A DNA stretch of 64,000 nucleotides from Terriglobia bacterium (GTDB lineage: Bacteria; Acidobacteriota; Terriglobia; 2-12-FULL-54-10), in the NCBI GenBank assembly GCA_963662495.2, contig CAXVYQ010000002.1, forward strand, positions 390,355 to 454,354, written 5' to 3'. Below are positions 35,801 through 57,784 of this stretch, one piece after another. Below the pieces are notes generated by a model. It was not told the DNA's origin. It saw only the letters and a program-made list of their open reading frames with translations, and did not search any database. Position 1 is the stretch's first letter. Each line of letters opens with the position of its first letter. A program made the position numbers and the translations under genes.

Positions 35801-35966
35801 CGGGGTGGGGGAGGCGCGTCTTCAGCTTCGCGCCGAAGCCTTCAATCTGCTGAACCGCACGAACCTGCATCTACCGGACGCCTTTGTCGGCTCTCCCACA
35901 TTTGGGCAGGTCCTGTCTGCCGAGAGCCCCCGGAGATGTCAGTTCGGCGTGCGGCTGATCTTCTGA
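32835..35966 (+). CDS. TonB-dependent receptor with a CarboxypepD_reg-like N-domain (acidobacterial type)
   Basis: Signal peptide MLMRVLVLAVVCSSALTAVAQ, SVRGQVLDPTGVAI...GAYRIEVEQPGYK (carboxypeptidase regulatory fold), plug-like region, and a long beta-barrel ending RLIF. Confidence 0.85.
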   Translation: MLMRVLVLAVVCSSALTAVAQSHRASVRGQVLDPTGVAIESVKVLITREATGESRTAITEASGWFLVAMLPPGAYRIEVEQPGYKRFLSRVALQVHQDLRLRIPLVLGEITEEVFVTAPLIPLETGTSALGTVIDGRQLAGLPLDGRNFLELALLAPGAAPAPQGSASSQRGDFAFSVNGAREDMHSFLLDGFYNMDPKLNTPGVRPPIDAIREFAVLTGTYDASFGRNAAGQVNVVTQSGTNAMHGTLYGFFRTKVLDARNFFSPDSEPAPDYSRAQTGGSWGGPIVRNRTFFFADYEHTRLREGITRLTSVPTLAERNGDFSRSLLPAPLDPFTRQPFPGNRIPDQFMHPTGRAIAALYPEPNRPAPQANFVSSPTLRDDGDLFDLRVDHHFGELATLTARYSFNDQRLFEPFASSVSVPGFGTDVARRGQNFGFSITQGFGSTLIHEARLGYGRVAIGVLQENQGHSLNQEVGLPEISSNPRDFGLSQITVTGFSPLGDEFTTPQESAIDSVQIADTLTWAGAVHLLKAGAEFRWSGQTAFRDVQSRGFLNFSDRYVTGNALADLLLGFPLVTGGAVLDNPQRLRAPAWSGFVQDNWRLGPQLTLTTGLRYEYVAPAFDAEDRANLYDPLTQQLVRVGTAGMPRGGYEPDRDNWAPRIGLAWTPDGAGRTVLRGGYGIYYNQGALATGEGLYFNPPFFDFSLFVPFEGIPPVTLNDPFPQSYPVSLPVSATGYQPDLETGMLEHWSVSLQRQLGRRRTVEVAYVGTRGHDLIAARDLNQPRPSAVFPNLRPNPLFDDITIIESRGSSQYNALQLKLQQQLDHGLSLLAAYTLGKSTDDASGFFSSSGDPNFPQDSNNLAAEYGRSGFDLRHRFSASFAWELPFSSILSDTELHGILTFQSGPPFTVALLPEVDNSNTGRSTLGFGANDRPHLVGDPSLGDRSPERWFDTAAFAVPAFGSFGDASRNILDGPGRRNFNLGILKHIPIGVGEARLQLRAEAFNLLNRTNLHLPDAFVGSPTFGQVLSAESPRRCQFGVRLIF

Positions 35967-36034: not shown

Positions 36035-37366
36035 CTACTCCTCGGCGATGCAATAGAGATACTGTGATCCACGCAGATAGATCTCTTTGTCGATCAATGC
36101 GGGAGAGGCATCGAAGTCATCGTCCAGATGGTTTTCCGCCAGCACCTCGTAGGCCGGGCCGTGGCGGATCACCAGCGTGGTTCCCTCGCGGCCCGTAAGA
36201 TACAATCGTTCCCGGGCGGCCACCGGGGAGGAAAAGACGTTGTGGATTGCCGGGAGGCGTTGGCGCTGGTAGTGCGGCTGGCCCGTTCGGACGTCAAAGG
36301 CCGACAGTATTCCCGAGTTGGTCTTCAGTAAATACAAAATGCCGTCGTAGAGCACCGGGGAGGGCACGTAGGGCGTGTCGCGGTCCAGCGACCAGACGAT
36401 TGCATCGGTATCGGTGATGTCGCCGCGCGCTCCGGCTAGCCGGATGGCCTTGAGGTCGTTGCCCCGGAAGCCGCTGGTGGCGACCAGGATGCCATCGGCG
36501 AACACCGGCGATGGGATCGGGTTCATGGTCAGGCCATCGCTCTCCCAGACGATCTCACCCGTCTCCAGATCGTAGCTCCGCAGCCGTTCCATACCCGGCA
36601 CGATCACCTGCGCCCGCCCGTCCTGCTCCACAACCAGAGGCGTGGCCCAGCTGTCGATCTCGTCCCGCTTCGCCCTCCAGAGTTCCGTGCCCGTCCGCTT
36701 GTCCAGCACCACGATGAAGGACTGCCCGCCTAGGTGATCCCAGACGACGACCAGACGGTCTCCGTAAAGCGCCGGCGTGCTGCCCTCTCCGAACTGGCTG
36801 CGCTGGCGTTTGTCGCCCAGGTCTTTCTCCCAGACCCGGTTGCCCTCCATATCGAATGCGTAGATTCCGAACGATTCGAAATAGGTATAGACATGCTCAC
36901 CGTCGGTCGCTGGCGAGGAGGAGGCCCATGTCCCATTGTCCTGATGCGAGGCCTCGTGCGGCGTGGCCTCGGTTGCGATCCTCTCCCAGAGGACGCTGCC
37001 GTCGCGCCGGTCCAGCGCCATCACCATGAAACGGTGGGGAATGCGCGGCTCCACTCCGCCGCGTGGCTCGTGCGCCTCCGGGCCGGAGACGCCCACCGGC
37101 ACGGCTGTCTGCACGAAGACCCGGTCTCCCCAGACCACCGGCGAGGCCACGCCCCGTCCGGGTATCTCCACCTTCCACCGGATGTTCTTCGACTCGCTCC
37201 ATTCAACCGGAGGATCGGCGGTCTCCGACACACCGGTGGCATAGGGACCCCGCCACTGCCCCCAGTTCCGCTCCTGCTCCGGGGTGGGATCGGGAGGCGA
37301 CGAGAAACCGGCCAGCACTCCCAGGCTGATGGCAATGATCGATGCTCCGAGCATGCTGCTTTTCAT
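36035..37366 (-). CDS. secreted PQQ-like beta-propeller repeat protein, paralog E
   Basis: The start is placed at MKSSMLGASIIAISLGVLAG. NWGQWRGPYATG motif and propeller blades. Confidence 0.8.
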   Translation of the reverse strand: MKSSMLGASIIAISLGVLAGFSSPPDPTPEQERNWGQWRGPYATGVSETADPPVEWSESKNIRWKVEIPGRGVASPVVWGDRVFVQTAVPVGVSGPEAHEPRGGVEPRIPHRFMVMALDRRDGSVLWERIATEATPHEASHQDNGTWASSSPATDGEHVYTYFESFGIYAFDMEGNRVWEKDLGDKRQRSQFGEGSTPALYGDRLVVVWDHLGGQSFIVVLDKRTGTELWRAKRDEIDSWATPLVVEQDGRAQVIVPGMERLRSYDLETGEIVWESDGLTMNPIPSPVFADGILVATSGFRGNDLKAIRLAGARGDITDTDAIVWSLDRDTPYVPSPVLYDGILYLLKTNSGILSAFDVRTGQPHYQRQRLPAIHNVFSSPVAARERLYLTGREGTTLVIRHGPAYEVLAENHLDDDFDASPALIDKEIYLRGSQYLYCIAEE

Positions 37367-37412
37367 CCATTCCTCCCTGTGCATCCATCTCTCCCTGAGC
37401 GAATGATGCTCC

Positions 37413-38807
37413 TTAGTCCGGCAGCTCCTCGTGCTGCGGCTCCGGCAGCCAGAAGGATGCGATAAACCCCACCAGGTAGACGGAAAAAGCGACGCATGCA
37501 GCGACCAGTGCGATTTTGGTGGGCGCAAAGGAGCGGTCGGGGGTGATCGCCAGCGTGGCCGTTACCCATGCGAACGACGTGCCGATCAAGCGACCGCCGA
37601 TGTTGGCGGCGAAACTCTCTCCCGTGCCGCGCAGATGGAGCGGGTAGACGCGCGGAAGATAGTTCCCCCAGAAGCTCAGTTGTCCTATGGTGAGCAGTCC
37701 CGCGAGGAACAGTCCGGGATAGAGCCAGGTGACGCTGTTTGTCGCCAGTACGGCGAACACCACCGGCATCACAATCAGTCCCGGAACCTGGAACAGGCGG
37801 ATCAGTCGCCGGCGGCTGGCGATTCGGACGACCAGCAGCGCCAGCAGTATCCTGCCCAGCATTCCTCCGAACTCCTGGGACTTCGTCAGGTTCGCCGCCA
37901 TCGATTGGATGATTCGTCCTGCCTCCGGCGGCGACATACCCTGAATCATCGCCCGCACCTCGGGTAGTCCGGGAACGATCTGCGGAATCTGCTGCAGCGC
38001 GCCGAACGCAGCACCATAGCCCATCGCAAACATGATCGTGGTTACAATCGTCGTCCGTCGCAGTTCCGGCGCAAACAACGCCCGGATGCTGGGACGTTTC
38101 AATGTTCCGGCCGCCCGTTTCTCCTGCCAGATGGGGGATTCCGGCAGGAACGGACGAATGATGATGAGCGGAATCGCCGGTATGATGCCCGACATCAGCG
38201 TATATCGCCATGCCGCGTGGGAATCGTGAATGCTGTCGCCTATTCCAAACCAGCTGATCTCTGGCAGGCTCGCGGCGTAGGCCACGCACAACCCGTTGAC
38301 TGTAGCCACCATCAGCCCGCCGATGGACGAAAACGCCTGCGTATATCCCAGTACCTTCTCGCGGCGGGCCGGTTGCGGAAACGATTCGGCAAGCCACGCG
38401 ATGGCGGCGACAAACTCCACGCAGACGCCGATGAAAACCAGGCACCGCAGCGCCAGCAGCATCTCCACCGAGGTCGAAAAGCCGGATGCAAACGCCGCAA
38501 CTCCATAAAGAAGGATGCTGTATGTGAGCACCCGCCGCCGCCCGATCCGATCCGTTAAGTAGCCGCCCAACAATCCAAAGATGCCGCCCGCAATCGCCGG
38601 CAGATAGAAGAGCCGGCCCACCCACATCTGGAACTCCGGCGAGCCGGGAGCGGCGCCGATCAGATCCAGCAGCGCCGGCCGCACGATCAGCGGCAGCATG
38701 AGGATTTCGTAGATATCGAAGGAAAAACCGATGACCGCTATGAAGCAGATCAGCCACTGCTGCGCCGTCAGAGGTGATGGGGCGGTGCCTGTGTTGCTGT
38801 TCGTCAT
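37413..38807 (-). CDS. MFS transporter
   Basis: 464 aa with about 12 hydrophobic segments and a GYLTDRIGRRR-type loop 2-3 motif. The overlapping 505-aa ORF in another frame is Arg/Gly-rich noise. Confidence 0.8.
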   Translation of the reverse strand: MTNSNTGTAPSPLTAQQWLICFIAVIGFSFDIYEILMLPLIVRPALLDLIGAAPGSPEFQMWVGRLFYLPAIAGGIFGLLGGYLTDRIGRRRVLTYSILLYGVAAFASGFSTSVEMLLALRCLVFIGVCVEFVAAIAWLAESFPQPARREKVLGYTQAFSSIGGLMVATVNGLCVAYAASLPEISWFGIGDSIHDSHAAWRYTLMSGIIPAIPLIIIRPFLPESPIWQEKRAAGTLKRPSIRALFAPELRRTTIVTTIMFAMGYGAAFGALQQIPQIVPGLPEVRAMIQGMSPPEAGRIIQSMAANLTKSQEFGGMLGRILLALLVVRIASRRRLIRLFQVPGLIVMPVVFAVLATNSVTWLYPGLFLAGLLTIGQLSFWGNYLPRVYPLHLRGTGESFAANIGGRLIGTSFAWVTATLAITPDRSFAPTKIALVAACVAFSVYLVGFIASFWLPEPQHEELPD

Positions 38808-39367
38808 GATTGCTCGATGTTATTCCATTGTCCCGGCGTGCGGGCACAATGAACTCCTTTCCTGCTCGTGTGGAATCCATGGGGTGCTCGGGAAGGCTTC
38901 CACGCCCGGCTATGAACCGGCCGTCCGCAGCGCCCGGAAAATTCTGAACAGCTCAACCTTGAAAAGCTCTGCGGGAATGTTCGTCCGACCCATCGTCCCC
39001 ACTCCGAATACGATCCAAGCGGATGGCGGACACCGGCGTCGGCAGGATCATGGTATCGCGGATGCTCGCGCCACGAAACGTAAAAACAATCGAATCGCGA
39101 ACCAGGGAGCAATGAAATGCATCCGAGCAGTGAACCGCCACGGAGCCGGGAGTGCGTCCGAACAGCGAAACGCGAGGACAGTTGCATTCGATGTCCCTGC
39201 CGGACATCGTGCGCCCCGGGAATGTATGTCCGGCATGGAACTTTCTCTGCTTAGGCCCTGCTTTGGCGGTTGCATTGGCCGGGACGGGGGCCGGGAGGGA
39301 GACGGGACTGCGGGGGAGGGGACGAAATCTCTTTTCGCAACCGGACCCAATTCCTTATACTAAGCAG

Positions 39368-40483
39368 ATGCAAATCGCGGATTCGAATTCACAGGTGGAC
39401 AATAAGGCCCGGGCAGGCGCAGCGGGCGAGGCGCTCGACGCCTGGGTGCGCGAGGTGGTCGATTGGCATTTCGATCCCGCCAGCGGTTGTCCTTTCTGGC
39501 TGAACTACGCCTCGAAACTGGGATGGGACCCCCGGCGCGAGATCAAGGTGTTTCAGGACCTGAAGAGGTTTCCCCCGTTCGAGGATGAGTGGCTGCGCGG
39601 CGGGCCGGTGGAGCGCTGGGTCCCGCGAGGGCTTGCCGGCAAACCCGTCTACGTCTTCGAGACCGGCGGCACCACCGGCATCCCGAAGACGCGCATCAAC
39701 TGCCATGATTTCCGGATCGATTACGAGATGTTCAGCAAGACGTTGCCGGACGAATATTTTCCGAGAGGCTCCAACTGGCTGATGATGGGTCCCACCGGTC
39801 CTCGCCGCCTGCGGCTGGCCGTGGAGCATCTGGCGCAGGTTCGCGGCGGCATCTGCTTTCTTGTGGACCTCGATCCGCGCTGGGTCATCAAGCTGATCCA
39901 GAAGGGGTGGAGCGAGCATCTCCAGGCCTACAAGGATCATGTCATCGATCAGGGTATTACGATCCTTCAGGCCAACCACGACATCCGTTGTCTGTTCACT
40001 ACGCCCAAGCTGCTCGAAGCACTTGCCATGCGGCTGGAGACCATGGGCACCACCATCCGCAAGATGGGCATCACCGGCATCTTTTCCGGCGGCACGGAGT
40101 TCACTCCGCAGTGGAACCGGTTTGCCCGCGAGGAACTGCTGGACGGAGCCTACTTGACCCCCACCTACGGCAATACCATGATGGGTCTGGCGGCCAGCGC
40201 CCCGAGCGGCCCGGAAAACGGCTATAAGATCGCCTATTACCCCCCTCATCCCCGCGCTGCCATCGAAGTCGTGAACTTGGAGGATTCCGCGTCCGTCGTG
40301 AATTACGGAGAAACCGGCCGCATCAGCATTACCACTCTCACCAAGGAATTTTTCATGCCCGGTTTTCTTGAGCGGGATGAAGGCGAGCGGGAGCCGCCTT
40401 GTGATCTCTACCCCTGGGATGGCGTCAGCGGCGTCCGGCCCTACCGGGGACTGGCCGCCACGACCACGGTGGGAGTGTACTGA
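39368..40483 (+). CDS. acyl-adenylate-forming enzyme of the LuxE / CapK / F390-synthetase-like type
   Basis: 371 aa from the ATG at 39368. FETGGTTGIPK phosphate-binding loop, FSGGTEF, and the YGETGRISITTL block. Its size and order (next to a LuxC-like gene) resemble acyl-protein synthetase LuxE. Confidence 0.6.
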   Translation: MQIADSNSQVDNKARAGAAGEALDAWVREVVDWHFDPASGCPFWLNYASKLGWDPRREIKVFQDLKRFPPFEDEWLRGGPVERWVPRGLAGKPVYVFETGGTTGIPKTRINCHDFRIDYEMFSKTLPDEYFPRGSNWLMMGPTGPRRLRLAVEHLAQVRGGICFLVDLDPRWVIKLIQKGWSEHLQAYKDHVIDQGITILQANHDIRCLFTTPKLLEALAMRLETMGTTIRKMGITGIFSGGTEFTPQWNRFAREELLDGAYLTPTYGNTMMGLAASAPSGPENGYKIAYYPPHPRAAIEVVNLEDSASVVNYGETGRISITTLTKEFFMPGFLERDEGEREPPCDLYPWDGVSGVRPYRGLAATTTVGVY

Positions 40484-40515
40484 TCGGGAGTGAATTGAAT
40501 TGGAGTGTATTGAAG

Positions 40516-41946
40516 ATGCTGGAGATTCCCGTACTCCGCTGGGGACAGCCCTACCAAAGCCTTGAGGTGGACGAGGTCGTGCACTTTCTGACCGGCGAGC
40601 CCATCGCAAGGGTCGGCCGGGCCAACAGTGGCCTCATCCATCGGGACATGCGCAAGGCCCAGCGCGCACGAGACGTGCTGGCGGAAATCCCCATCGACGA
40701 GCTGATCGAGAGAGTCGCCCGCGCCGGGGAGCTGTATGCCAGTGGCACGGTTCCCATAGGCGACGGTGCGCAGACGCCGGATGAGTTTGTCCGCGCACAG
40801 TCGGGCAGCACGGGGCTGCCCGAAAATATGTGCCGCGCGAATATGCAGAAAAACGCTTTCGTGCTGGCCGAGATGAAGAACATCCTCGCCGCGCTGACCC
40901 GTGGACTGGACCTGGACGTTCTGACGCGCGGGCACGGGGAGGAGCGCGGCGTTCCCATCAGCTATCAGGCTCAGAGCCCCGTGCTGGGACTCGTCCTGCC
41001 ATCGAACTCGCCCGGCGTGCACACACTGTGGCTGCCGATCATTCCCCTGCAGGCCGGGCTGGTGCTGAAACCCGGGCCGCAGGAGCCCTGGACTCCCTAT
41101 CGCATGGCCGGGGCGTTCTTCGAGGCGGGCATTCCACGCGAGGCCATCTCGATCTATCCCGGAGAGGGCGATGTCGGCGCGGCGGTGCTGGAAAGCTGCG
41201 GCCGCAGTCTCATCTTCGGCGGCACTCCCACCGTCGACCGCTACCGGGGCGATCCCCGCGTGCAGGCGCACGGGCCGGGCTTTTCCAAGATTCTGCTGGG
41301 GGACGACCAGGTCGATCAGTGGGAGAAATATCTGGACGTCATGGTGGAGAGCGTGCTGCTCAACAGCGGCCGCAGTTGCATCAACTGCTCCGGCATCTGG
41401 GTCAGCCGTCACGGCCGCGAGATCGCCGAGGCGATTGCGCAGCGGGTCGCGTCCGTGGAGTCACTGCCCCCGGAGGACCCTCAGGCCGCGCTGGCCGCCT
41501 TTACAGTCCCCGGCGCCGCCGATGCCATCTCGCAGGCGATCGATGCCGATCTTCAGGTGCCCGGCGTTACCGACGTAACCGCCCGGCACCGTGACACCGG
41601 CCGCGTCGTGAAGCAGGGCCGGGCCGACTACCTGCTTCCCACGGTGGTCCATTGCGACTCGCCGGATGCGGCGATCGCTCGGAAGGAATACATGTTTCCG
41701 TTCGCGACGGTCGTGGAGTGCCCCGAGGAACGCATGATCGATGCAATCGGCCCTACGCTGGTCTGCAGCGCAATCACCTGCAACGAGCAGTTTCGCGCCC
41801 GGCTGCTGCGAGCGGTGCATATCGACCGGTTGAATCTGGGTCCCGTCCCGACCACGAAGCTGAACTGGATGCAGCCGCACGAAGGCAACATCGTCGATTT
41901 TCTCTTTCGTGCGAGGGCGTTTCAAACGGCTCCGCTCTCTGCCTGA
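40516..41946 (+). CDS. aldehyde-dehydrogenase-superfamily protein, LuxC-like acyl-CoA/acyl-protein reductase
   Basis: MLEIPVLRWGQ N-terminus, LPSNSPGVH, candidate catalytic Cys in NSGRSCINCSG. The canonical ELGG Glu is replaced (AHGPGFSKI), as in reductase-type members. GGAG lies 10 nt upstream of the ATG at 40516. Confidence 0.55.
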   Translation: MLEIPVLRWGQPYQSLEVDEVVHFLTGEPIARVGRANSGLIHRDMRKAQRARDVLAEIPIDELIERVARAGELYASGTVPIGDGAQTPDEFVRAQSGSTGLPENMCRANMQKNAFVLAEMKNILAALTRGLDLDVLTRGHGEERGVPISYQAQSPVLGLVLPSNSPGVHTLWLPIIPLQAGLVLKPGPQEPWTPYRMAGAFFEAGIPREAISIYPGEGDVGAAVLESCGRSLIFGGTPTVDRYRGDPRVQAHGPGFSKILLGDDQVDQWEKYLDVMVESVLLNSGRSCINCSGIWVSRHGREIAEAIAQRVASVESLPPEDPQAALAAFTVPGAADAISQAIDADLQVPGVTDVTARHRDTGRVVKQGRADYLLPTVVHCDSPDAAIARKEYMFPFATVVECPEERMIDAIGPTLVCSAITCNEQFRARLLRAVHIDRLNLGPVPTTKLNWMQPHEGNIVDFLFRARAFQTAPLSA

Positions 41947-42011
41947 CGGTGCCCGCCCTGGGGTCCTCCAGCGGCGCAACCGATTCGCGCCAGGAAGCGT
42001 AATCAATCTGC

Positions 42012-43334
42012 ATGCGGATACTCTCCATCACGGCCGGGGCTGCGGGGATGTATTGCGGCAGTTGCGTCCGCGACAACGCGCTGGCGGCGGAACTGATTAC
42101 CCAAGGACACGATGTCACGCTGGCGCCCGTCTACACGCCCACCCGCACCGATGAGCCGAACGTCAGCCGCCACCGTGTCCTGTTCGGCGGCATCAGCGTC
42201 TATCTGCAGCAGTATTTTTCCCTGTTCCGGCGCACGCCCGGGTTCCTGGACTGTCTCTGGGACGCGCCCTTCGTCATCGACGCTTTTGCCGGCCGCGCCG
42301 TCTCACACGACCCGCACCTGCTGGGCGGCCTGACGGTCTCCATGCTGCGCGGCGAGCAGGGTGCGCTCGGCAAGGAGTACCGGAAATTGCTCGACTGGGT
42401 GAGCCGGGAGCCGGTTCCCGACATCATCAACCTGCCCAATTCTCTGCTCATCGCGCTGGCGGCACCGTTGGGCAAGGCCTTGCAGCGACCGGTTTGTTGC
42501 ACGCTGCAGGGCGAGGAACTGTTCATTCAGGGGCTGGACGAGCCGTACCGGCAACAGACGATCGATCTGATCCGGGGGCAAGTCCGGCATGTGGACCGCT
42601 TCATCGCCGTGAGCGAGTATTGTGCACGGTTCATGGCGGAGTATCTTGCCATTCCGCACGAGAAGATCGTGGTTGCGCCGCTCGGCATCGATCTGGCGGG
42701 CTACGAGCGCCGTGAGCCTGGAGTGGAGGATGCCGCTGGATTTCGCATCGGCTTTTTCGCGCGCGTTGCGCCGGAGAAGGGACTGCTGGAACTGGCCGAG
42801 GCTTATATCCGGTTCCGCCACCGCCCCGGCGCGGCCCCGGCGCGGCTGGAGGCCGCGGGCTTCCTGGCGGCCCGCCACCGGGAGTATCTTTCCGGGGTCC
42901 GCCGCCTTCTCGATCGGGCGGGGTTCGCAGAGGAGTTTACTTATCACGGAGAACTCGACCGCGCGGGCAAGCTCGCGTTCTTGCGTGGCCTCGACGTTCT
43001 GTCGGTTCCCGCCCCCTGCGACGAGTCCAAGGGCATCTTCCTGCTGGAGGCCATGGCTGCGGGCGTTCCGGTGGTCGAGCCGCGCCGGGGCGCCTTTGTC
43101 GAGATCGTCGAGAAAACGGGTGGCGGTGTTCTGGTGGAACCCGGTGATCCGGACGATCTTGCCGATGCTCTTTTCCATCTCTGGCAGGACCGGAAAGCTC
43201 ATGACAATCTGGCGCAGTGCGCCTTTCAGGGCGTACGGAACCATTACACCGTGGCTCAATCCGCAACACGCTTGCTGGAAATCTACGAGAAAGTGCTGAG
43301 GTCATACGCAGTTGCTGGAAGTATCGGGAATTAG
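42012..43334 (+). CDS. glycosyltransferase family 4 (GT-B fold)
   Basis: MRILSITAGAAGMYCGSCVRDN N-terminus and the ESKGIFLLEAMAAGVPVVEPRRGAFVEIV EX7E region. Confidence 0.8.
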   Translation: MRILSITAGAAGMYCGSCVRDNALAAELITQGHDVTLAPVYTPTRTDEPNVSRHRVLFGGISVYLQQYFSLFRRTPGFLDCLWDAPFVIDAFAGRAVSHDPHLLGGLTVSMLRGEQGALGKEYRKLLDWVSREPVPDIINLPNSLLIALAAPLGKALQRPVCCTLQGEELFIQGLDEPYRQQTIDLIRGQVRHVDRFIAVSEYCARFMAEYLAIPHEKIVVAPLGIDLAGYERREPGVEDAAGFRIGFFARVAPEKGLLELAEAYIRFRHRPGAAPARLEAAGFLAARHREYLSGVRRLLDRAGFAEEFTYHGELDRAGKLAFLRGLDVLSVPAPCDESKGIFLLEAMAAGVPVVEPRRGAFVEIVEKTGGGVLVEPGDPDDLADALFHLWQDRKAHDNLAQCAFQGVRNHYTVAQSATRLLEIYEKVLRSYAVAGSIGN

Positions 43335-43998
43335 CAAACACTACCCGGCGCCGCGGGGGTTGCTCACGGTGCTCTCTGGTGTTACGTTCTCGCTGGAGTC
43401 GGGAAACTCCGCCGCGATGACCGGGCCCTCGGGCAGCGGGAAAAGTTCGCTCCTCTATATCCTGGGCGGACTCGAGCCGCCTTCGGCGGGGACGGTCCGG
43501 CTCGGCGGCCGCAATCCCTATGAGCTGACCCCGCCGGAGCTGGCTGGCTTCCGGAACACCCAGATCGGATTCGTCTTTCAAGATCACTGTCTGTTGCCGC
43601 AGTGCTCGGTGCTGGAGAACGTCCTCGTGCCCACGCTGGTCGCGAATGCCGGCGAGGAGGATCCCGCGCCCGATTTCACCGCCCGAGCACGGTCGCTGAT
43701 CGAGCAAGTGGGGCTGGAGGATCGCATGGAGCATCGCCCGGGGGAACTCTCCGGAGGAGAAAAACAGCGGGTGGCGATTGCGCGGGCGCTGATCCGGGCC
43801 CCCCGGCTGGTGCTGTGCGACGAGCCGACGGGTAATCTTGACCCGGCGACGGCCGGTGCGGTCGCATCGCTGCTGCTCGATCTCCACCGCAGGCAAAACA
43901 ACATTCTGATCGTCGTGACGCATAGCGCGCAGCTCGCCTCCCGGTTTTCCCATCGTTTCGAGGTCGCGGGCGGACGATTGATTCGGGCCGAGTCGTGA
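43312..43998 (+). CDS. ABC transporter ATP-binding protein (MacB/LolD type)
   Basis: Walker A GPSGSGKSS, signature LSGGEKQRVAIARAL, Walker B LVLCDEPTGNLD. The TTG start overlaps the end of the GT4 gene by 23 nt. Confidence 0.85.
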   Translation: MLEVSGISKHYPAPRGLLTVLSGVTFSLESGNSAAMTGPSGSGKSSLLYILGGLEPPSAGTVRLGGRNPYELTPPELAGFRNTQIGFVFQDHCLLPQCSVLENVLVPTLVANAGEEDPAPDFTARARSLIEQVGLEDRMEHRPGELSGGEKQRVAIARALIRAPRLVLCDEPTGNLDPATAGAVASLLLDLHRRQNNILIVVTHSAQLASRFSHRFEVAGGRLIRAES

Positions 43999-44065
43999 GC
44001 AGCGGATTGGAATAACGGTGTTCCCCGCCGAATCCGGGCGGGGGATGCAACAATGTAGAGCTTTT

Positions 44066-47000
44066 ATGAAGCTTCGTCATCTTGTCCTCGGGAGCATGAA
44101 ATACTACTGGCGCACGAACGCCGCCGTCGTGCTGGGCGTGGCGACGGCTGTCGCCGTGCTGTCCGGCGCGCTGCTGGTGGGCGATTCGGTGCGTGGCAGC
44201 TTACGGGATTTGGTCCTGGAGCGGATCGGCAGAACGGATCAGGTTGTCGTATCAGCCGGGTTCTTTCGCGAAAGTCTTGCCGGGGACCTGGGAGGAGATC
44301 CGGAGTTTCCAGCATTCTTCGACGGGATCTGCCCCGTCGTGATGGTGCAGGGTTTTGTCAGCGTGCAGGGCGGCGGCGGTCGTGCCGGCCAGGTGCTGGT
44401 TTACGGGGTGGACGACCGTTTTTGGCGGTTCCACGGCATGGACACGGTCAGCGGACCGCGGGACCGCGACGCGCTGATCAGCCCAGCTCTCGCCCAAGAG
44501 CTGGGCGCGGCGGCGGGAGCCATGATTCTGGTCCGGGTACAGAGTCCGACCGACGCTCCTCTGGAATGGCTGCACGGCCGCAAGGATGATCCTGGCCGGA
44601 CGCTGAGAGCCACGGTCGGGGCCGTGATTCCCCGCCACGAACTCGGCGAGTTTTCCCTGCAAGCGCGGCAAGGTGATATCCGCGCTGTCTTTCTGCCGCT
44701 GCCCCTGCTCCAGCAGAGCCTGGAGGTGGGCAGCCGTGTCAACACTCTGCTGCTCTCCGCCAGCCCGGATAGCACGGCACCTTCTTCCGCGGCCCTGGAG
44801 CGGCTGGTGAGAAGCCAGGCCCGGCTGGAAGACTTCGGCCTGGAGTTGCGAGTTCCCGAGTCCCGGGACGCATTCTTCCTGGAAGCCGAAGGCGGATTGC
44901 TGAATGACGCCCAGGCGAATGCGGCATTGGATGCGGCGCGCGAGGTGGGTTTGGCTGCCCAGCCCGTGTTTACCTACCTGGCCACCGGCCTCGGCAGCGG
45001 GAATCGGGAGATCCCCTATTCGGTTGTAACCGCCATGAATCTCCCCGAGCTCTCCGGTCCCGATTCCATGGTGTTGAACGATTGGGCGGCGCGGGATCTT
45101 CAGGTCGCGGCCGGCGACCTGGTAACGATGGAATACGACGTGTGGGAGGAACCCGGCCGCCTGGTTGCCCGGAGCAAGGAATTCCGCATCAGCGGAGTGG
45201 TCCCCATCGATCCCCGCGACCGCGATCTGGCGCCGGTATATCCGGGCATCACCGATTCGGCGACGCTGTCTGGCTGGGACCCCCCATTTCCCATCGACCT
45301 GCGCCGGATCCGCAGCATCGATGAGGAGTACTGGAAAATCCACCAGGCAACTCCGAAAGCCTTCATCCCCTTTGGAGTGGGCGAGCAGCTCTGGCATTCG
45401 CGATACGGCTCGATGACGGCGATCCGGTTCACCCTGAATCAGGGGCAGGACCAGGGGCAGGATCTGGAGACGATGCGCCGTCTCTATGCCGGGCGTCTGC
45501 GCGGGGAAATCGATCCCCTGGCGATGGGCATCGCCGTGCGCGACGTACGCGCGGAGGGTCTGAGAGTTGCCGGCGGCGCAACCGATTTTGGGGCTTATTT
45601 TCTCTACTTCAGCTTTTTTCTGGTGGTGTCGGCGTTGCTGCTGGCGGCGCTGTTTTTCCGGCTCAGCATGGAGCAGCGCGCTGGCGAAGTGGGGTTACTC
45701 CGTGCCGTGGGATGGAATGTCCCGGCTGTCCGCCGGTTATTCCTGCGGGAAGGGTTTTGGTTGTCCCTCGCGGGCGCGGGCGCTGGCGTGCTGGGAGGAA
45801 TCGGCTACGGCTGGGTAATGATGACCGGGTTGCGCACATGGTGGGTGGGAGCCGTCGGGACGACTGCGCTCACGCTGCACCTCTCGCCGGCGTCGCTTGC
45901 CGGAGGTGCGCTCGGCGGCGTGGCCGCATCGATGGCCTGCATCTGGCTGTCGCTCCGCAGTCTTTCGGCTGTTTCCGAACGCCGCCTGCTGACGGGCCAG
46001 ATTCGTTCCGAAACGGCGGATGTCCTCCGAGGCCGCAGAAAAGGCGGATGGCATTCCATTGCCGCCGCGGGGCTTGCCTTGCTGGGCGCGGTCCTGATCG
46101 CTTCCGCTGCTGCCGGACTGATCGAGCGGGCCAGCGCGTTTTTCAGTGCGGGCATGGCGCTGCTGGCCTCCTGTCTGTTGCTCTCCGCTCTTTGGCTCGC
46201 GCAGCCGGCGAGCAATGGGCTGGGGGGCCGGGGCTGGGCATCCCTGGGCCGGCTGGGTCTGCGCAATGCGATGTACCGTCCGGCCCGGAGCGTGGCATCG
46301 ATGGCCATGATCGCTTCGGCCACCTTCATTCTGATCGCGGTCGACACGTTCCGGAAAGAGGACTCTTCGGTCCCGGCCGGCCGCTCCTCCGGAACCGGCG
46401 GTTACTCGCTGCTCGTCGAATCGCTGCTTCCGCTGGTTCACGATCCCGGCAACCGCGAAGGGCGCGAGATGCTTGGCCTTGCCGGTTTCGATCAGGTAAC
46501 GATCGAGCCATTCCGTGTCCGGCCCGGAGACGATGCCAGTTGTCTGAATCTGTACGTTCCCAGCAATCCCCGCATCCTCGCTCCCCCGGATCGCTTGATC
46601 GAACAGGGGCGCTTTTCGTTCCGTTCCTCGCTGGCTTCCAACGGCGGGGAACGTGCCAATCCCTGGCTGCTTCTCCACCGGGAGGAGGCCGATGGCGCCG
46701 TTCCGGTCATCGCCGATGTGAATTCGATGACCTATGTGCTGCACCGCAAGCTTGGCGAAGACATTGTATTCACGGCCGGGGATCGCGAGGTTCGGCTCCG
46801 TCTGGTGGCGGCGCTGGAGGACAGCATCTTTCAGGGAGAGTTGCTGATGTCGCAGACAAATTTCCTGCGGCTGTTCCCGGAGCGGGAGGGATATCAGTTT
46901 CTGCTCGTCGAGCCCGGTTCGGGTCCTGGCTCAGGCCAAAGTTCAGGCACAGGATCAGGTCCCGACGAGCAGGTCGCGCTGGCCATCGAGGAGGCGCTGG

Positions 47001-47446
47001 CCGACTTTGGCGCCGACGTCCGGTCCACGGCCGGGCGGCTGGCCGAGTTTCACCAGGTCGAAAACACCTACCTCTCCACCTTCCAGATGCTGGGCGGACT
47101 GGGACTGCTGCTGGGAACCTTCGGGTTGGGCGCCGTCCTGTTGCGAAATATAATGGAGCGGCGGCGGGAGCTGGCGTTGTTGCGCGCGCTCGGCTACCGG
47201 CGGGCGCATTTCTTTGCGATGGTGATCGCGGAAAACGGAGTGGTTCTGCTGAGCGGTCTGTTGATGGGAACTGTCTGCGCGATTCTTGCCATCCTGCCGG
47301 CGTTGCTGGAACAGAGCGGACGCCTGCCCGCCCGCTCCCTGGGGTTGCTGCTGGGCAGTGTCCTGGCGGCCGGACTGATCGCATCGTTGGCGGCCACGGT
47401 GGTGGCGCTTCGTTCTCCGCTGCTGCGCGCGCTGCGCTCGGAGTAA
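44066..47446 (+). CDS. duplicated FtsX-domain ABC permease (MacB/ADOP-like) with large extracytoplasmic domains
   Basis: The N-terminal MKLRHLVLGSMKYYWRTNAAVVLGVATAVAVLSGALLVGDSVR is the typical FtsX-family start. There are two FtsX-type TM clusters (about 45.55-46.2 kb and 47.05-47.44 kb), each preceded by a long soluble domain. Confidence 0.8.
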   Translation: MKLRHLVLGSMKYYWRTNAAVVLGVATAVAVLSGALLVGDSVRGSLRDLVLERIGRTDQVVVSAGFFRESLAGDLGGDPEFPAFFDGICPVVMVQGFVSVQGGGGRAGQVLVYGVDDRFWRFHGMDTVSGPRDRDALISPALAQELGAAAGAMILVRVQSPTDAPLEWLHGRKDDPGRTLRATVGAVIPRHELGEFSLQARQGDIRAVFLPLPLLQQSLEVGSRVNTLLLSASPDSTAPSSAALERLVRSQARLEDFGLELRVPESRDAFFLEAEGGLLNDAQANAALDAAREVGLAAQPVFTYLATGLGSGNREIPYSVVTAMNLPELSGPDSMVLNDWAARDLQVAAGDLVTMEYDVWEEPGRLVARSKEFRISGVVPIDPRDRDLAPVYPGITDSATLSGWDPPFPIDLRRIRSIDEEYWKIHQATPKAFIPFGVGEQLWHSRYGSMTAIRFTLNQGQDQGQDLETMRRLYAGRLRGEIDPLAMGIAVRDVRAEGLRVAGGATDFGAYFLYFSFFLVVSALLLAALFFRLSMEQRAGEVGLLRAVGWNVPAVRRLFLREGFWLSLAGAGAGVLGGIGYGWVMMTGLRTWWVGAVGTTALTLHLSPASLAGGALGGVAASMACIWLSLRSLSAVSERRLLTGQIRSETADVLRGRRKGGWHSIAAAGLALLGAVLIASAAAGLIERASAFFSAGMALLASCLLLSALWLAQPASNGLGGRGWASLGRLGLRNAMYRPARSVASMAMIASATFILIAVDTFRKEDSSVPAGRSSGTGGYSLLVESLLPLVHDPGNREGREMLGLAGFDQVTIEPFRVRPGDDASCLNLYVPSNPRILAPPDRLIEQGRFSFRSSLASNGGERANPWLLLHREEADGAVPVIADVNSMTYVLHRKLGEDIVFTAGDREVRLRLVAALEDSIFQGELLMSQTNFLRLFPEREGYQFLLVEPGSGPGSGQSSGTGSGPDEQVALAIEEALADFGADVRSTAGRLAEFHQVENTYLSTFQMLGGLGLLLGTFGLGAVLLRNIMERRRELALLRALGYRRAHFFAMVIAENGVVLLSGLLMGTVCAILAILPALLEQSGRLPARSLGLLLGSVLAAGLIASLAATVVALRSPLLRALRSE

Positions 47447-47452
47447 TCGCTT

Positions 47453-48811
47453 ATGCCTTTTTGGGGAACTGATTCGTTGGAAGTCAAACGGGCCAGGAAG
47501 TTTGCCCGTCCCGTTCTGCCAGCTCTCCTGGCGGGACTGGTCCTGCTGACCACCGTGCCGGCCCTGCTGATCACCGTGCTGTCCGGGCAGGACGCCGCGC
47601 CGCGCAAGGATTCAGGCGGCGTGCGGATGATCGGCGTCGAAGGAGAGGGCGCCCGATATTGGCCGCGCTGGCGTGGTCCTTCCGGTCAGGGACTCGTGAG
47701 CGGCAGCGGCTATCCGGACAGTTGGTCCGGAACCGAGAACGTTCTCTGGAAAAAACCACTTCCAGGTCGCGGAAACTCATCTCCCATTGTCTGGGGCGAT
47801 CGCATTTTGCTCACCACTGCATATGAGGGAGGCAGGCGGGTGTCGCTGCTTGCATTCCGTCGCTCGGACGGCGCGCTGCTCTGGGAGAGTTTCGCTCCCG
47901 AAGGCCGCGCCCTGTCCTCCCATCAAAAGAATGGCCATGCCTCCGCGACGCCCGCCACCGACGGTGAGCGCATCTACGTCTCCTTCGGCAATCGCGGGCT
48001 GGTCGCCTTCGACATGGACGGCAAAATAGTCTGGCAGCAGGACCTCGGATCCATGGAGGCCTATCACGGCACGGCAGGCTCGCCGCTGCTCTACAAGGAC
48101 CGGATCATTCTTTACCAGGATCAGTACCGGGATTCCTTCATCGCGGCATTCGATACCAGCACCGGCCGGCTACTGTGGCGGACCCGGCGGGACGCCCGGG
48201 TGGGATGGGGCACCCCCATTGCGATCCGCGTCGCCGGACATGATGAGATCATCGTCCACGGCCAGCGCAAAGTGCAAGCCTACGACCCGGACACGGGGGA
48301 AGAACTGTGGTCCTGTAACGGGAATCTTACGGAGGTGATCCCCACGCCGGTCGTGGGATACGGGATGGTGTTTTGCCCCTCGGGCCGCGCCGGACCCACG
48401 CTCGCGATCCGGCCCGGCGGCAGTGGCGATGTTACCGAAACGCATCTGGTCTGGTCCAGTCCGCGCGGCTCCCCGTTCGTTCCCTCACCCATTCTCTATG
48501 GGAAATATCTTTTCATGGTGAATGACATGGCGAGCATCGCCACCTGTCTCGATCCGGTTTCGGGGCGCACTCTGTGGCAGGGACGGCTGGGCCGTCCGCG
48601 GCGCGAAGGGTTTTCCGCCTCGCCCGTCGCGGTGGATGGCAAAGTCTTCTTCACGAATGATGCGGGAGAGACGTTCGTGCTCCGCGCCGGCCCGGATTTC
48701 GATCTGCTGCACACGAACCGGCTCGGGGAAACCACGCTTGCATCGCCCGCCCTGGTGGAGGGGCGATGGTATTTCCGGACCGCGCGCAACCTGATCGCCA
48801 TCGGCCGCTGA
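47453..48811 (+). CDS. secreted PQQ-like beta-propeller repeat protein, paralog F (last gene of the plus-strand operon)
   Basis: TM/signal segment PVLPALLAGLVLLTTVPALLI, YWPRWRGPSGQG motif and propeller blades. It starts 7 nt after the permease stop. Confidence 0.8.
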   Translation: MPFWGTDSLEVKRARKFARPVLPALLAGLVLLTTVPALLITVLSGQDAAPRKDSGGVRMIGVEGEGARYWPRWRGPSGQGLVSGSGYPDSWSGTENVLWKKPLPGRGNSSPIVWGDRILLTTAYEGGRRVSLLAFRRSDGALLWESFAPEGRALSSHQKNGHASATPATDGERIYVSFGNRGLVAFDMDGKIVWQQDLGSMEAYHGTAGSPLLYKDRIILYQDQYRDSFIAAFDTSTGRLLWRTRRDARVGWGTPIAIRVAGHDEIIVHGQRKVQAYDPDTGEELWSCNGNLTEVIPTPVVGYGMVFCPSGRAGPTLAIRPGGSGDVTETHLVWSSPRGSPFVPSPILYGKYLFMVNDMASIATCLDPVSGRTLWQGRLGRPRREGFSASPVAVDGKVFFTNDAGETFVLRAGPDFDLLHTNRLGETTLASPALVEGRWYFRTARNLIAIGR

Positions 48812-48894: not shown

Positions 48895-50160
48895 CTAGTT
48901 CCAGGTCAGTAGCGAAAGCGTTTCGACATCCTTCACCAGGATGCGGTTGCCGGAAAACACCGGCTGCGTCCAGGTGTCCGTGTCGGCGACCTTGTACCGG
49001 CGAATCTCTTCGAAGGCCTCCTGACTGCGCCGGAAGACGATCAGCTCGCCGTCGTCCTCCAGGCTGAGCACCAGATCGCCGGTTCTCAGCCCGACTCTCA
49101 ATAATGATGCGTTCTCGGCCTGGCGCGGCTCGGAGAGCCATACCGTTTCGCCCGTCCGTGGATTCAGGCTGAAGTACTGCCCGCTGTTGCGCGTCGACAA
49201 GCTGAACAATCGGCCTTCCACGATCACGCCGTTGGTCATGCGCATGGTAACCCCTTCGTTCTCCCACACCTGTTCCACGCTCCATCGCTCTGCTTCCTTT
49301 TTGGCGCGGATGGCGGTCACGGGCTTCTCCCGGCTGGAGATGATGAACAGGTCCTCAAAGCGCAGCGGCGTCATGGAGTTCGTGAAATTGGAGCTTACAT
49401 AGGGATACTCCCAGAGCAACTCGCCGGTAGCGACGTCCAGTCCCACGATCTTGCCCTGCGAATTCGTCACGATCTGCCGCGTGCCTTCCAGCTCCACCAC
49501 GATCGGCGACCCGTACCCCGGGGCATCCCCGTCCCAGCGCCACTTCACATCGCCGGTGTTCACGTCGAATGCCGTCAGTGCCCCCACGTTATGCCCGCCC
49601 ACGTGGAATATCACCGCACCTTGTTCTACCACGGGAGAAGAGGAATGCGTCGTATAGTACAGCAGGGGTTTGGATCCCGGTTTCTGCCACAGGATTTTGC
49701 CCGAGGCCGCATCGAAGGCGGTAATAGCGCCGGCCATCCCGATCGTAAACAGTTTGCCGTTGCTGAAAACCGGTGTCGATTTCGGTCCGGGCCCGTGCCC
49801 GGCGGCGGAGCGGTTCATCGTAAACAGGGCCGGATACGTGGTCTCCCACAGAATCTCTCCCGTTGCCAGATCCATCGCCCGCATCACTTCGTCCTCGCCT
49901 TTGCGCGAGAACATGTAGATCCGCTCGCCCACGATCAGCGGCGTGGCATAGCCTGGGCCCACCTCCAGCGTCCAGTGCCGCGTCAGTTGGTCGGGCCACG
50001 TCTGCGGCGGCGTGAAGTTTTCGAGCGTCCCATCGCGGTTCGGACCGCGCCACTCCATCCAGTCCTGCGCCCCGGCCGGCGCGGCCAGCGATGTAGTGGC
50101 AGCCAGCAGGACGATGGCTGTGAGCCGATGATCGATCCATCTCATAGCGTTCCTCTCCAT
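48895..50160 (-). CDS. secreted PQQ-like beta-propeller repeat protein, paralog G
   Basis: Signal peptide ...LTAIVLLAATTSLAAPAGA, DWMEWRGPNRDG motif and propeller blades. Confidence 0.8.
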   Translation of the reverse strand: MERNAMRWIDHRLTAIVLLAATTSLAAPAGAQDWMEWRGPNRDGTLENFTPPQTWPDQLTRHWTLEVGPGYATPLIVGERIYMFSRKGEDEVMRAMDLATGEILWETTYPALFTMNRSAAGHGPGPKSTPVFSNGKLFTIGMAGAITAFDAASGKILWQKPGSKPLLYYTTHSSSPVVEQGAVIFHVGGHNVGALTAFDVNTGDVKWRWDGDAPGYGSPIVVELEGTRQIVTNSQGKIVGLDVATGELLWEYPYVSSNFTNSMTPLRFEDLFIISSREKPVTAIRAKKEAERWSVEQVWENEGVTMRMTNGVIVEGRLFSLSTRNSGQYFSLNPRTGETVWLSEPRQAENASLLRVGLRTGDLVLSLEDDGELIVFRRSQEAFEEIRRYKVADTDTWTQPVFSGNRILVKDVETLSLLTWN

Positions 50161-50220: not shown

Positions 50221-51567
50221 TTACTCCCCGATTGCGGACAACATGTTATCAGAGCGGATGAACAATCGACCCTGCGAAATCGCGGGTGAGGCCAGTTGCC
50301 GCGCAGTGATCTGGTTGCGGGAGAGGATCTCCGGCGTCCGGCCAGCGGCCAGCACCACCGTCTCACCGCCTTCGCTCAGCAGGTAGACCTTCCCATCGCC
50401 CGCCACCGGCGAGGCGCTGTAGACGCCCCCGATGCGCTTCTGATGGACGCGTTCGCCCGTCTCGGCGTCCACCACCGTCAGCACTCCTACGTCGCCCACC
50501 ATGTAGATCAGTCCGTCGTAATAGACCAGGGAAGAAACATAAGGTGCGCCCGTATCGGCCCTCCACAGAACGTGGCTGTCGGCAATATTTCCCCGGCCTC
50601 CCGGCCGGATCGCCATGTAGGGTCCGCTACGGTACCCGCGGCTGGTGTAGATCACGCCGTTGTGAGAGACCGCCGTGGATATAGGGAACCGGTTCGGGTC
50701 GCCGATATGCCAGAGCAGCTCTCCCGTCGAGGCGTCGTGGCCCCTCATGCCCAGGTTGGAATTCACCACCAGTTCCGCGGGGTCCGTCGTCCCGATCAGT
50801 TTCGGCGTGCTGTAGGAGATGGTTCCTTTCTCCCGGTCCTGCTTCCACCGGACCGCTCCGGTCCGCGCGTCCAGCGCCAGCAGGTAGGACGCCGCCGGGT
50901 GGTAGGAGAGCAGGATCACGGAGTCCTCGTAAACAACCGGCGAGCTTCCGTGCCCGTGATTGATGTTCAGCATTCCGTACTCGTCGCCCAGATGACGCTG
51001 CCATTGGAACTGGCCGTTCATATCGAGAGCGAAGATCTGGCCCGTGCCGAACCATGCATAGACCCGCTCGCCATCGGTAACCGGGCTGGCGGTGGCCAGG
51101 TTGTGCTTCTCGTGAACAACGGGCAGGTCCCCTTCGGCCGCCATTTCGTATTCCCAGAGCTGGCGCCCGCTGGCGCGGTCGAACGCCGTTACCAGGAAGG
51201 AGACTGATTCCTCGTCTGCACTTGGGTTGATCCCGCCCAGCGGCCGCTCGCCCGCGGAAGCCGCGTCGCCTTGCTGAAACAGCCGCGGACCCGTCCTCCA
51301 CGCGCCCCGCCCCGTCTGCGAGGTTACGAACACCTGATCCTTCCAGACGATGGGAGAGGAGATGCCCATGCCGAGGAAGCTGGTCTTCCAGGCGATGTTT
51401 TCCGCATCGCTCCAGCTTGCAGGCAGTCCGCTCTCCGGCGACACGCCGTTTGCGGATTCACCGCGCCAGTTCGGCCAGTCCTCGGCCTGCGCCGCGAAGC
51501 CGAGTGCCAGAAACAGGGCCAGAAACCGGGCAAGAAATAGGGTCTAGAAAAGTGCAGTCCTATGCAT
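50221..51567 (-). pseudogene. PQQ-like beta-propeller paralog H with an in-frame TAG at codon 8 of its signal peptide
   Basis: Minus strand from 51567: ATG CAT AGG ACT GCA CTT TTC TAG ACC CTA TTT CTT GCC ..., giving MHRTALF*TLFLARFLALFLALGFAAQAEDWPNWRGESANG. This is in frame with the track ORF 50221-51444. Confidence 0.6.
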
Positions 51568-54568: not shown

Positions 54569-54840
54569 TCTGCCACGTCCTTTAAGATTTGCTTCTCCAG
54601 ACTCAACTCCGCCACCAGCCGCTTCAGCCGCGTATTCTCCTTCTCCATCGCCTTCAGCCGCTTGGCTTGCTCCACCTTCAGTCCGCCATATTCTTTCCGC
54701 CAACGATAGTACGTTTGCACGGTGATCCCGGCTTCCTTGCACGCTTGCGGTGTCGTCTTCCCGCTTGCCACCGCCACTTCAACCTGTCTTAACACCGTTA
54801 CGATCTGTTCCGGTTTGTACCTCTGCATCGGCATGTTCAA
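54556..54840 (-). CDS. IS3-family transposase OrfA
   Basis: 94 aa: [29 protein letters not shown] followed by a coiled-coil tail. Confidence 0.85.
54562..54568 (-). promoter_or_regulatory. X_XXY_YYZ slippery heptamer G_GGA_AAC (probable -1 frameshift site)
   Basis: The sense sequence is gag GGA AAC ttc taa. After a -1 slip it reads [10 protein letters not shown], which continues into OrfB. Confidence 0.45.
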
Positions 54841-56390: not shown

Positions 56391-56413
56391 GGCCTAGTCA
56401 CCCCTTGTTCCCA

Positions 56414-57749: not shown

Positions 57750-57784
57750 AATGCTGTCTCACAGGTATCGATACGCCGATGCCG

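Follow-up and report, generated by a model that had tools for sequence, protein, structure and literature searches.

We examined a 64,000-nucleotide stretch of a Terriglobia bacterium genome (GCA_963662495.2, contig CAXVYQ010000002.1, positions 390,355 to 454,354; hereafter the window), in which an earlier reading made from the letters alone (the sequence-only reading) had singled out a tight six-gene operon at 39368-48811 as a candidate lipid or glycolipid export system. All six plus-strand open reading frames (ORFs) were recovered as that reading had described them, with gaps of 32, 65, -23 (an overlap), 67 and 6 nt, and the motifs FETGGTTGIPK and NSGRSCINCSG were present in the translations of the first and second genes, respectively. 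In order, the genes encode an EhpF-type ANL adenylating enzyme without a C-terminal domain (g1; 39368..40483, 371 aa), an EhpG-type protein of aldehyde dehydrogenase (ALDH) fold and putative acyl-thioester reductase (g2; 40516..41946, 476 aa), a glycosyltransferase of the retaining-type family GT4 (g3; 42012..43334), a type VII ABC ATPase resembling LolD, YbbA, FtsE and the nucleotide-binding domain (NBD) of MacB (g4; 43312..43998), a fused double-FtsX permease (g5; 44066..47446, 1126 aa, ten predicted transmembrane helices) and an exported or membrane-anchored PQQ_2 (BamB-like) beta-propeller (g6; 47453..48811). The 5' end of g4 overlaps the 3' end of g3 by 23 nt. The g1 ORF could begin as far upstream as 39152; its homologs are 371 aa long and can be aligned from residue 1. 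Divergent from g1 on the minus strand lies a gene for a major facilitator superfamily (MFS) transporter (37413..38807; Pfam MFS_1/Sugar_tr), across an intergenic region of 560 nt (38808..39367) that presumably holds promoters.

Judged from the spacing, the g3/g4 overlap and the conserved adjacency described below, the six genes are likely to be co-transcribed as one operon-like unit, as the sequence-only reading had supposed. The RNA evidence consists of a single identical metatranscriptome contig of 164 nt that falls inside g2. In the 560-nt region upstream of g1, a search for a riboswitch or leader found no Rfam family, and the region had no DNA similarity to the upstream regions of other loci. 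Promoter and terminator scans gave nothing above shuffled expectation, and the sole weak sigma-70-like site upstream of g1 (39334-39361) scored no better than shuffles.

EhpF is an ANL adenylating enzyme that has no C-terminal domain and is encoded by Pantoea agglomerans in its D-alanylgriseoluteic acid (phenazine) cluster. When the PDB was searched by sequence with g1, EhpF was the one strong match (3hgu/3l2k, E 6e-43, residues 9-360 against 10-357), and BLASTP matched an EhpF copy on a Pantoea plasmid at E 5e-46. The 371 residues of g1 reach both ends of the 366-369-aa EhpF, with TGGTTGIPK aligned to SGGTTGAPK; identity is 30% with the Pantoea protein and 38% with a homolog from a haloarchaeon. 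The Pfam AMP-binding profile covered a partial stretch of g1 at 24.5 bits, below its gathering threshold, and AMP-binding_C gave no match. On sequence grounds, g1 is thus assigned as an EhpF-type ANL adenylating enzyme by its full-length homology, its absent C-terminal domain for CoA or phosphopantetheine and its retained ATP P-loop, and adenylation of a carboxylate is predicted from the homology.

For g2, Pfam Aldedh (PF00171) matched at 65.7 bits. In tblastn searches of plasmids, g2 reached the ALDH-family gene directly 3' of ehpF in the phenazine clusters of Pantoea, E. coli and Burkholderia (E 7e-22 against EhpG), which share the EhpF-then-EhpG gene order, and also, on a haloarchaeal plasmid, the ALDH gene of a comparable pair. 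Across the alignment of g2 with the EhpG family, the catalytic Cys288, the oxyanion Asn164 and the cofactor-binding Glu391 are invariant. At the position equivalent to Glu268, the hydrolytic general base of classical ALDHs, g2 has His, EhpG has Gln and other relatives have Leu or Tyr. This pattern, Cys and Asn retained with the general-base Glu lost family-wide, identifies g2 as a predicted EhpG-type ALDH-fold protein, and it fits a reductase because an acyl-Cys thioester could form but could not be hydrolysed without the general base. The sequence-only reading had called the two genes LuxE-like and LuxC-like, an assignment that we rejected: neither LuxE (PF04443) against g1 nor LuxC (PF05893) against g2 gave a match even at E<=10, and EhpG itself reaches 18.5 bits with LuxC, under the cut-off of 21. 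The type of chemistry proposed under those names survives the change of family, in that an adenylating enzyme is paired with a Cys-dependent ALDH fold whose general-base Glu is replaced by His, and activation of an acid followed by its reduction to an aldehyde is probably the best reading of what g1 and g2 do together.

The scan for relatives covered one genome per species; at least 574 genomes encode a relative, and the locus counts given here come from the best 80 loci. Nearly all of these belong to metagenome-assembled genomes of Acidobacteriota (Vicinamibacterales, Terriglobia, gp6 and others). Four are labelled otherwise ('Acidimicrobiia', 'Bifidobacteriaceae'); their flanking genes match Vicinamibacterales loci, so that misbinning or mislabelling is the probable explanation. 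Homologs of g1 at 77-85% identity number more than 8000 in the database, and the whole EhpF-like family comprises about 1500 clusters at 50% identity. Gene g1 adjoins g2 in 78/79 loci, g2 adjoins g3 on the same strand in 69/75 (median gap 45 nt), and g3 adjoins g4 in 63/64. Downstream DNA sufficed for the g4-g5 comparison in 61 loci, of which 36 have the two genes directly adjacent and 17 have g5 farther off within the locus. A propeller gene follows g5 in 31/35 loci; identity is 70-82% for about 17 of them and 26-40% for the others. Median identities for g1 to g5 are 79, 78, 64, 67 and 55%. The same order, kept in 80 loci from distinct species-level genomes and set in unrelated chromosomal contexts in other genomes, is far beyond chance.

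This was the outcome of the neighbourhood check that the sequence-only reading had itself proposed: about 80 loci with a conserved order, and no ordinary catabolic families. That reading had also called the combination a system it could not name, and we likewise found no described counterpart of the whole gene combination in the literature. The parts are new members of known families, and it is their conserved combination that appears to be new. In six loci (L017, L022, L053, L055, L058, L076) a second MFS gene (lactate/oxalate-formate type), a TPR gene and a gene for an acidobacterial VWA-domain protein (TIGR03436) lie between the ATPase and the permease.

The pairing of EhpF-type and EhpG-type genes extends to seven remoter loci, and the partners of such pairs bear on their product. 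On a Planctomycete-like contig, a g1-like gene (45% identity), a g2-like gene (52%) and a gene for an iron-containing alcohol dehydrogenase (Fe-ADH) stand in a row, and the same Fe-ADH type, from a small-substrate group, lies near the operon in 11 acidobacterial loci. A short-chain dehydrogenase/reductase (SDR) gene flanks the haloarchaeal pair, and SDR genes also occur in ehp clusters. Elsewhere, a gene fusion joins a class-III aminotransferase to an EhpF-like adenylating domain, and an ALDH/LuxC-like gene comes next (P0223; L092 8001-11904, L093 4966-8869), an arrangement that would imply an acid-to-aldehyde-to-amine route in another lineage. Since alcohol dehydrogenases and omega-transaminases consume aldehydes, the Fe-ADH, SDR and omega-transaminase partners support an aldehyde as the product of the pair. 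Deletion of ehpF reportedly leads to accumulation of phenazine-1,6-dicarboxylate, and the 6-formyl compound has reportedly been proposed to arise through an adenylate by the action of EhpF and EhpG. The lomofungin cluster carries homologs of both genes, and its product bears a 6-formyl group derived from phenazine-1,6-dicarboxylate (PMC4549113).

These relatives raise the question of whether g1 and g2 simply serve ordinary catabolism, as a phenylacetate-CoA ligase (PaaK) with an aldehyde dehydrogenase, or the tailoring of a phenazine. The label 'PaaK-like' that JGI gives to g1 homologs favors the former, and the role of EhpF and EhpG as phenazine-tailoring enzymes the latter. We nevertheless consider either most improbable. 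No PaaK chain appeared in the PDB search at E<=10, NCBIfam gave only a 19.6-bit match to the DVU_1553 family, g1 lacks the thioester-forming C-terminal domain and no paa genes were found in the neighbourhood, and on these grounds PaaK was rejected as the identity of g1. Gene g2, for its part, lacks the hydrolytic Glu required for aldehyde oxidation. A phenazine cluster was rejected because homologs of PhzA/B, D, E, F or G are absent from the 64-kb window and from all 80 loci.

The divergent MFS gene was missed by the sequence-only reading. An ortholog is divergent within 4 kb upstream of g1 in 50/73 loci (median identity 59%), and the gene belongs to the conserved unit, which then counts seven genes: MFS and the six-gene operon. 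It comes closest to symporters of organic acids and H+ (the aromatic acid, sialate, MhpT and PcaK families), each time under the curated cut-off (96 bits for NCBIfam TIGR00895). In 17 acidobacterial loci a sodium:solute symporter (SSS) gene, nearest to MctP, ActP and PutP and again under all cut-offs, stands between the MFS gene and g1; the haloarchaeal pair is likewise beside an SSS symporter, and one remote homolog (L089) has an ABC importer alongside. Together with the small-substrate Fe-ADH, these organic-acid-type MFS and SSS symporters would point to a soluble acid as the substrate.

Turning to the second half of the operon, g3 is a GT4 glycosyltransferase with a GT-B fold. It matched Pfam Glyco_transf_4, Glycos_transf_1 and Glyco_trans_1_4, all above cut-offs, and reached no equivalog level in NCBIfam. 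Its AlphaFold2 (AF2) model (mean confidence, pLDDT, 84.8; residues 40-100 of low confidence) is closest in fold to MshA, BshA and GlgM, with TM-scores of 0.68-0.82 to MshA and BshA. Conserved features of g3 include an invariant N-terminal motif, MYCGSCxRDN (residues 13-22), two further cysteines (C163 and C204) and a strongly conserved aromatic-rich insert (residues ~43-115) that is modelled with low confidence; these could bind a metal or serve as an interface to a partner protein or to the membrane. The ATPase g4 matched Pfam ABC_tran and, in NCBIfam, LolD at 228 bits (cut-off 307.75), YbbA at 178, FtsE at 177 and the MacB NBD at 168, with 146 bits against DevA.

The strongest evidence that the GT4 works with the ABC machine is the tie between these two proteins. 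In-frame fusions of GT4 to the ABC ATPase occur in two independent assemblies (P0398, P0404; L091 1799-3787), with the junction ...PQAKSLEV(S/A)NLSKHY, and the ATPase gene stays beside GT4 even where the permease gene is absent or unlinked.

The permease g5 contains MacB_PCD and two FtsX domains (Pfam), and its AF2 model (pLDDT 70, predicted template modelling score 0.62) has the ten transmembrane helices. Sequence searches of the PDB with g5 and g6 returned almost nothing. By structure, Foldseek placed E. coli YbbP (9ge6_A) first, at E 1.2e-14 over about 900 aligned columns, followed by LolE/C, BceB, MacB and HrtB. The sequence-only reading had described a MacB-type exporter with duplicated FtsX and without a membrane-fusion protein (MFP) gene. 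Pfam and fold matches bear this out, and no HlyD-type MFP gene was found in Pfam scans of the neighbourhood or as a recurrent gene in the 80 loci. Its further claim of two very large periplasmic domains holds for the first, which in the AF2 model spans residues ~55-505 (~450 aa) and is ~240 aa larger than in MacB or YbbP, but not for the second (~775-985, ~210 aa), which has the ordinary MacB size. We found no support from hhalign for an internal duplication in the oversized first domain.

An FtsX transmembrane domain, a MacB-type periplasmic core and a cognate LolD/MacB-type ATPase are the features of a type VII ABC system, and by its modelled fold g4/g5 is a YbbAP-like member of this class rather than a tripartite MacAB pump. 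Three known systems were tried as its identity and rejected: the LolCDE lipoprotein release system, for which neither ATPase nor permease reached an equivalog-level match (g5 against lolCE, 30.4 bits, cut-off 362); the ADOP duplicated permease, on its profile score (TIGR03434, 31.1 bits, cut-off 622); and a tripartite pump of the MacAB-TolC or DevBCA kind, for want of an adjacent membrane-fusion adaptor gene (g5 against DevC, 20.6 bits, cut-off 290).

Among the type VII ABC systems of E. coli, a fourth was characterised in 2025, YbbAP, which pulls hydrophobic compounds out of the inner membrane; every type VII system of E. coli operates with a partner in the periplasm (PMC12646458). By gene position, g6 is the candidate for this partner of g4/g5. 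It has a hydrophobic N-terminus and matched Pfam PQQ_2 at 109 bits. As a BamB (TIGR03300, 54 bits, cut-off 285) or a PQQ-dependent alcohol dehydrogenase (35.5 bits, cut-off 480) it was rejected, both equivalog cut-offs being missed, which left a generic PQQ_2 repeat protein.

Mechanotransmission without transport is established for one type VII system, FtsEX-EnvC (named in PMC12646458), and g4/g5 might by analogy act as a switch of the propeller, or of an enzyme bound to it, with GT4 reporting or controlling cytoplasmic status. The conserved position of the propeller gene would suit such a switch, and the extra ~240 aa of the first periplasmic domain could serve as a docking platform. PQQ_2 propellers of the size of g6 have no known enzymatic output, however, and the reductase pair would be left without a role, so that we regard a non-transporting function as very unlikely.

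What the analysis shows is the families of the proteins, the pattern of active-site residues, the conserved gene order, the GT4-ATPase fusion and the fold; the chemical steps, the substrate and the direction of transport that follow are our inference. A carboxylic acid, probably imported, would be adenylated by g1; uptake by the neighbouring organic-acid-type symporters seems likelier than an origin as an endogenous fatty acid. Since the ANL C-terminal domain, which deals with CoA or phosphopantetheine, is absent from g1, the acyl group would pass directly from g1 to Cys288 of g2, and because the hydrolytic general base is absent, g2 would release it reductively with NAD(P)H as the aldehyde. 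The two proteins together would amount to a CoA-independent carboxylate reductase. The aldehyde, or an alcohol derived from it (via the Fe-ADH that is encoded near some relatives and not in this window), would become the aglycone or acceptor for g3, acting, to judge from the gene fusion and the fold, at the cytoplasmic face of the g4/g5 complex. By ATP-driven mechanotransmission g4/g5 would remove the amphiphilic glycoside from the inner membrane and pass it to g6, which would fill the role that LolA, TesA, EnvC or MacA plays in the four type VII systems of E. coli. The assignments of the components are well supported. The pathway as a whole, from acid reduction through glycosylation and ABC extraction to the propeller, is more tentative, and we would give it somewhat less than an even chance of being right throughout.

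Several points weigh against this pathway. The window encodes no enzyme for converting the aldehyde to a glycosyl acceptor, and importing an acid merely to export its derivative is not obviously sensible. To our knowledge, the substrates of type VII ABC systems are periplasmic or in the outer leaflet and are not cytoplasmic products, so a flipping step is missing. The best fold neighbours of the GT4, MshA and BshA, use soluble acceptors, a poor fit with a membrane extractor. The gene content of the loci adds to these points. About 8-9 Vicinamibacterales loci have the ATPase and no permease gene nearby. Where the operon ends in this way after the ABC ATPase (L029, L037, L041, L043, L052, L056, L061, L064, L068), a gene for a nitronate monooxygenase, a spermidine-synthase-like membrane protein or, in L041, a 1562-aa TIR-CHAT-NB-ARC-TPR protein stands in place of the FtsX permease. 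One locus (L074) has the g1-g2 pair without GT4 and ABC genes, two (L078 and L080) lack GT4, and remote g1 homologs (40-47% identity) never adjoin GT4 or FtsX genes.

Some of these gaps would be expected if two functions merely stood side by side, with MFS, g1 and g2 reducing or assimilating an organic acid, GT4, the ABC system and the propeller forming an unrelated envelope module, and the synteny reflecting no more than common descent in a single phylum. The pair on its own in L074, the missing GT4 in L078 and L080, inserts between g2 and g3 in three other loci (L034, L062, L067) and the absence of the second module beside every remote pair all speak for such a division, as do the far higher identities of g1 and g2 (~79% and ~78%) than of g3 to g5. 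Against it stands the junction between the supposed modules: the same-strand adjacency and short gap of g2 and g3 hold across Vicinamibacteria and Terriglobia whose flanks otherwise differ. Two independent functions are therefore unlikely in our judgement.

If the soluble acid is what the importers and Fe-ADH would point to, an amphiphile is what the type VII ABC system and the fusion of GT4 to the ATPase suggest, and a lipid version of the pathway, essentially that of the sequence-only reading, gives this more weight. Here the pair would reduce an endogenous fatty or dicarboxylic acyl chain to a fatty aldehyde or alcohol, from which the GT4 would make an alkyl glycoside or glycolipid; the MFS protein would flip it and the type VII ABC system with its propeller would deliver it to the outer envelope. 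Heterocyst glycolipid export by DevBCA with HglT and glycolipid flipping by LtaA are precedents for these last steps. Type VII ABC systems are known to handle amphiphiles, lipoproteins in the case of LolCDE and hydrophobic compounds in that of YbbAP (PMC12646458). The fusion places the GT4 at a membrane machine, its aromatic-rich insert could be an interfacial segment, and the 146 bits of g4 against DevA are in keeping with such an exporter. On the other side, the known substrate of the EhpF/EhpG family is an aromatic dicarboxylate and not a fatty acid, the pair does not belong to LuxE/LuxC, and its neighbours are symporters of organic-acid type and an Fe-ADH of a small-substrate group. Among the conserved neighbours there is neither an acyl carrier nor an acyltransferase nor any other lipid gene, the DevC score is negligible and no DevB-like MFP is present. 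Nothing found here supports the tie to ether or membrane-spanning lipid chemistry that the sequence-only reading had raised as speculative. On balance we find the lipid version rather unlikely.

Returning to the pathway with an imported acid, we compared its parts with described systems. To EhpF/EhpG of Pantoea agglomerans, and their homologs EsmB1 and Lomo15-16 in Streptomyces, the pair is alike in the end-to-end alignment and short length of g1, its GGTTGxPK loop, the order of adenylase before ALDH, the kept Cys and Asn and the lost Glu. It differs in its setting, where phenazine core genes are absent and the partners are GT4, type VII ABC, propeller and MFS genes, in its identity to them of 22-30%, and in that the acidobacterial clade is exceptionally conserved (~79%) and very abundant (>8000 sequence clusters). 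LuxE/LuxC follow the same logic, from an acyl-adenylate enzyme to the Cys of an ALDH-clan reductase and on to an aldehyde, with proteins of similar size, but g1 and g2 have no Pfam match to that pair and no LuxD-type acyltransferase accompanies them.

For the transport half, YbbAP-TesA is the closest parallel, with a single-polypeptide, 10-helix double-FtsX permease, a separate LolD-like ATPase and a genetically linked periplasmic partner instead of an MFP (PMC12646458). Identity is 13-14%, the first periplasmic domain here is enlarged, and the partner is a beta-propeller rather than an SGNH hydrolase, with a cytoplasmic GT4 linked, and in some lineages fused, to the ATPase. LolCDE shares the FtsX/MacB_PCD architecture, and LolD is the best NCBIfam match of g4, but the scores fall far under the cut-offs. 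ADOP permeases are also duplicated and are typical of Acidobacteria; g5 differs in having its own adjacent ATPase. In DevBCA-HgdD with HglT, a glycosyltransferase acts on a reduced acyl chain and a MacB-type ABC system exports the product, as would be the case here. The reduced chain there comes from a polyketide synthase, though, and not from an EhpF/EhpG pair, and it has the DevB-type MFP that this operon lacks.

Read across the phylum, a CoA-independent EhpF/EhpG-type reductase feeding a glycosyltransferase docked on, and in some lineages fused to, the ATPase of a YbbAP-like machine with a propeller partner could add a fifth functional class to the type VII ABC systems, its task being to produce and extract a novel glycoside that is secreted or placed in the envelope; we think this possible rather than probable. 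Acidobacteriota rank with the most abundant bacteria of soils and their biochemistry is poorly understood, and identities of ~79% for g1 and g2 across classes are at the level usual for core machinery. The EhpF/EhpG pair, known only from the tailoring of phenazine antibiotics, is here extended to a different and far wider setting, and the comparative data newly support it as a two-protein, CoA-independent carboxylate reductase, which may be of interest in biocatalysis alongside the large carboxylic acid reductase (CAR) enzymes. With a GT4-ATPase fusion and a propeller as partner, the unit would broaden the set of type VII ABC systems that work by mechanotransmission. Should the product be a glycolipid of the envelope or a secreted glycoside, it might be a lineage marker or play a part in the ecology of soil and sponge-associated Acidobacteria.

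The operon lies among related propeller genes, nine PQQ_2 (BamB-like) genes, g6 included, being found within 25 kb (26398-51444). Upstream on the minus strand Pfam placed them at 26398-27525, 27559-28995, 29070-31298, 31410-32789 and 36035-37528, the last a paralog 37% identical to g6. Downstream, two more (48895-50160 and 50221-51444, minus strand) are convergent with g6, and the same pair of minus-strand PQQ_2 genes follows the operon in one other locus (L001). Membership of the system is uncertain for both this downstream pair and the paralog at 36035-37528. Genes for CarboxypepD_reg/OMP_b-brl_4 outer-membrane barrels stand amid the propellers (23084-25306 and 32835-35966, plus strand), and similar arrays of two PQQ genes and an outer-membrane protein gene precede the operon in three further loci (L002, L019, L023).

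Farther out, the window holds IS110-family transposase genes (5836-6927, 10330-11409 and 58221-59288) and IS4/5-type DDE (4815-5825), IS481-like (13599-15038) and IS3-like (53696-54742) genes. GC content is 0.52-0.57 in the flanks and 0.60-0.65 at 16-52 kb, the lower values being due to flanks rich in insertion sequences (4815-15038 and 53696-59288); the transposase-flanked, higher-GC block looked like a possible mobile island, but the flanks are simply IS-rich and other genomes carry the operon in unrelated chromosomal settings. DNA nearly identical to the operon (39368-48811) is present in several sequencing runs with host labels, which matched 86-94% of the sampled words, and in part in 'sponge metagenome' runs (6-17%), which suggests that the window may come from a sponge- or host-associated acidobacterium. 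Other genes in the window encode a 1097-aa protein with NIDO (nidogen-like), BACON_2 and TIG domains (19704-22997), NIDO being unusual for a bacterium, a DUF1585/1587/1588/1592/1595 protein of the PSD/PSCyt kind typical of Planctomycetes (60271-62715) and a radical SAM protein with an HMPTM-type zinc ribbon (2013-4046).

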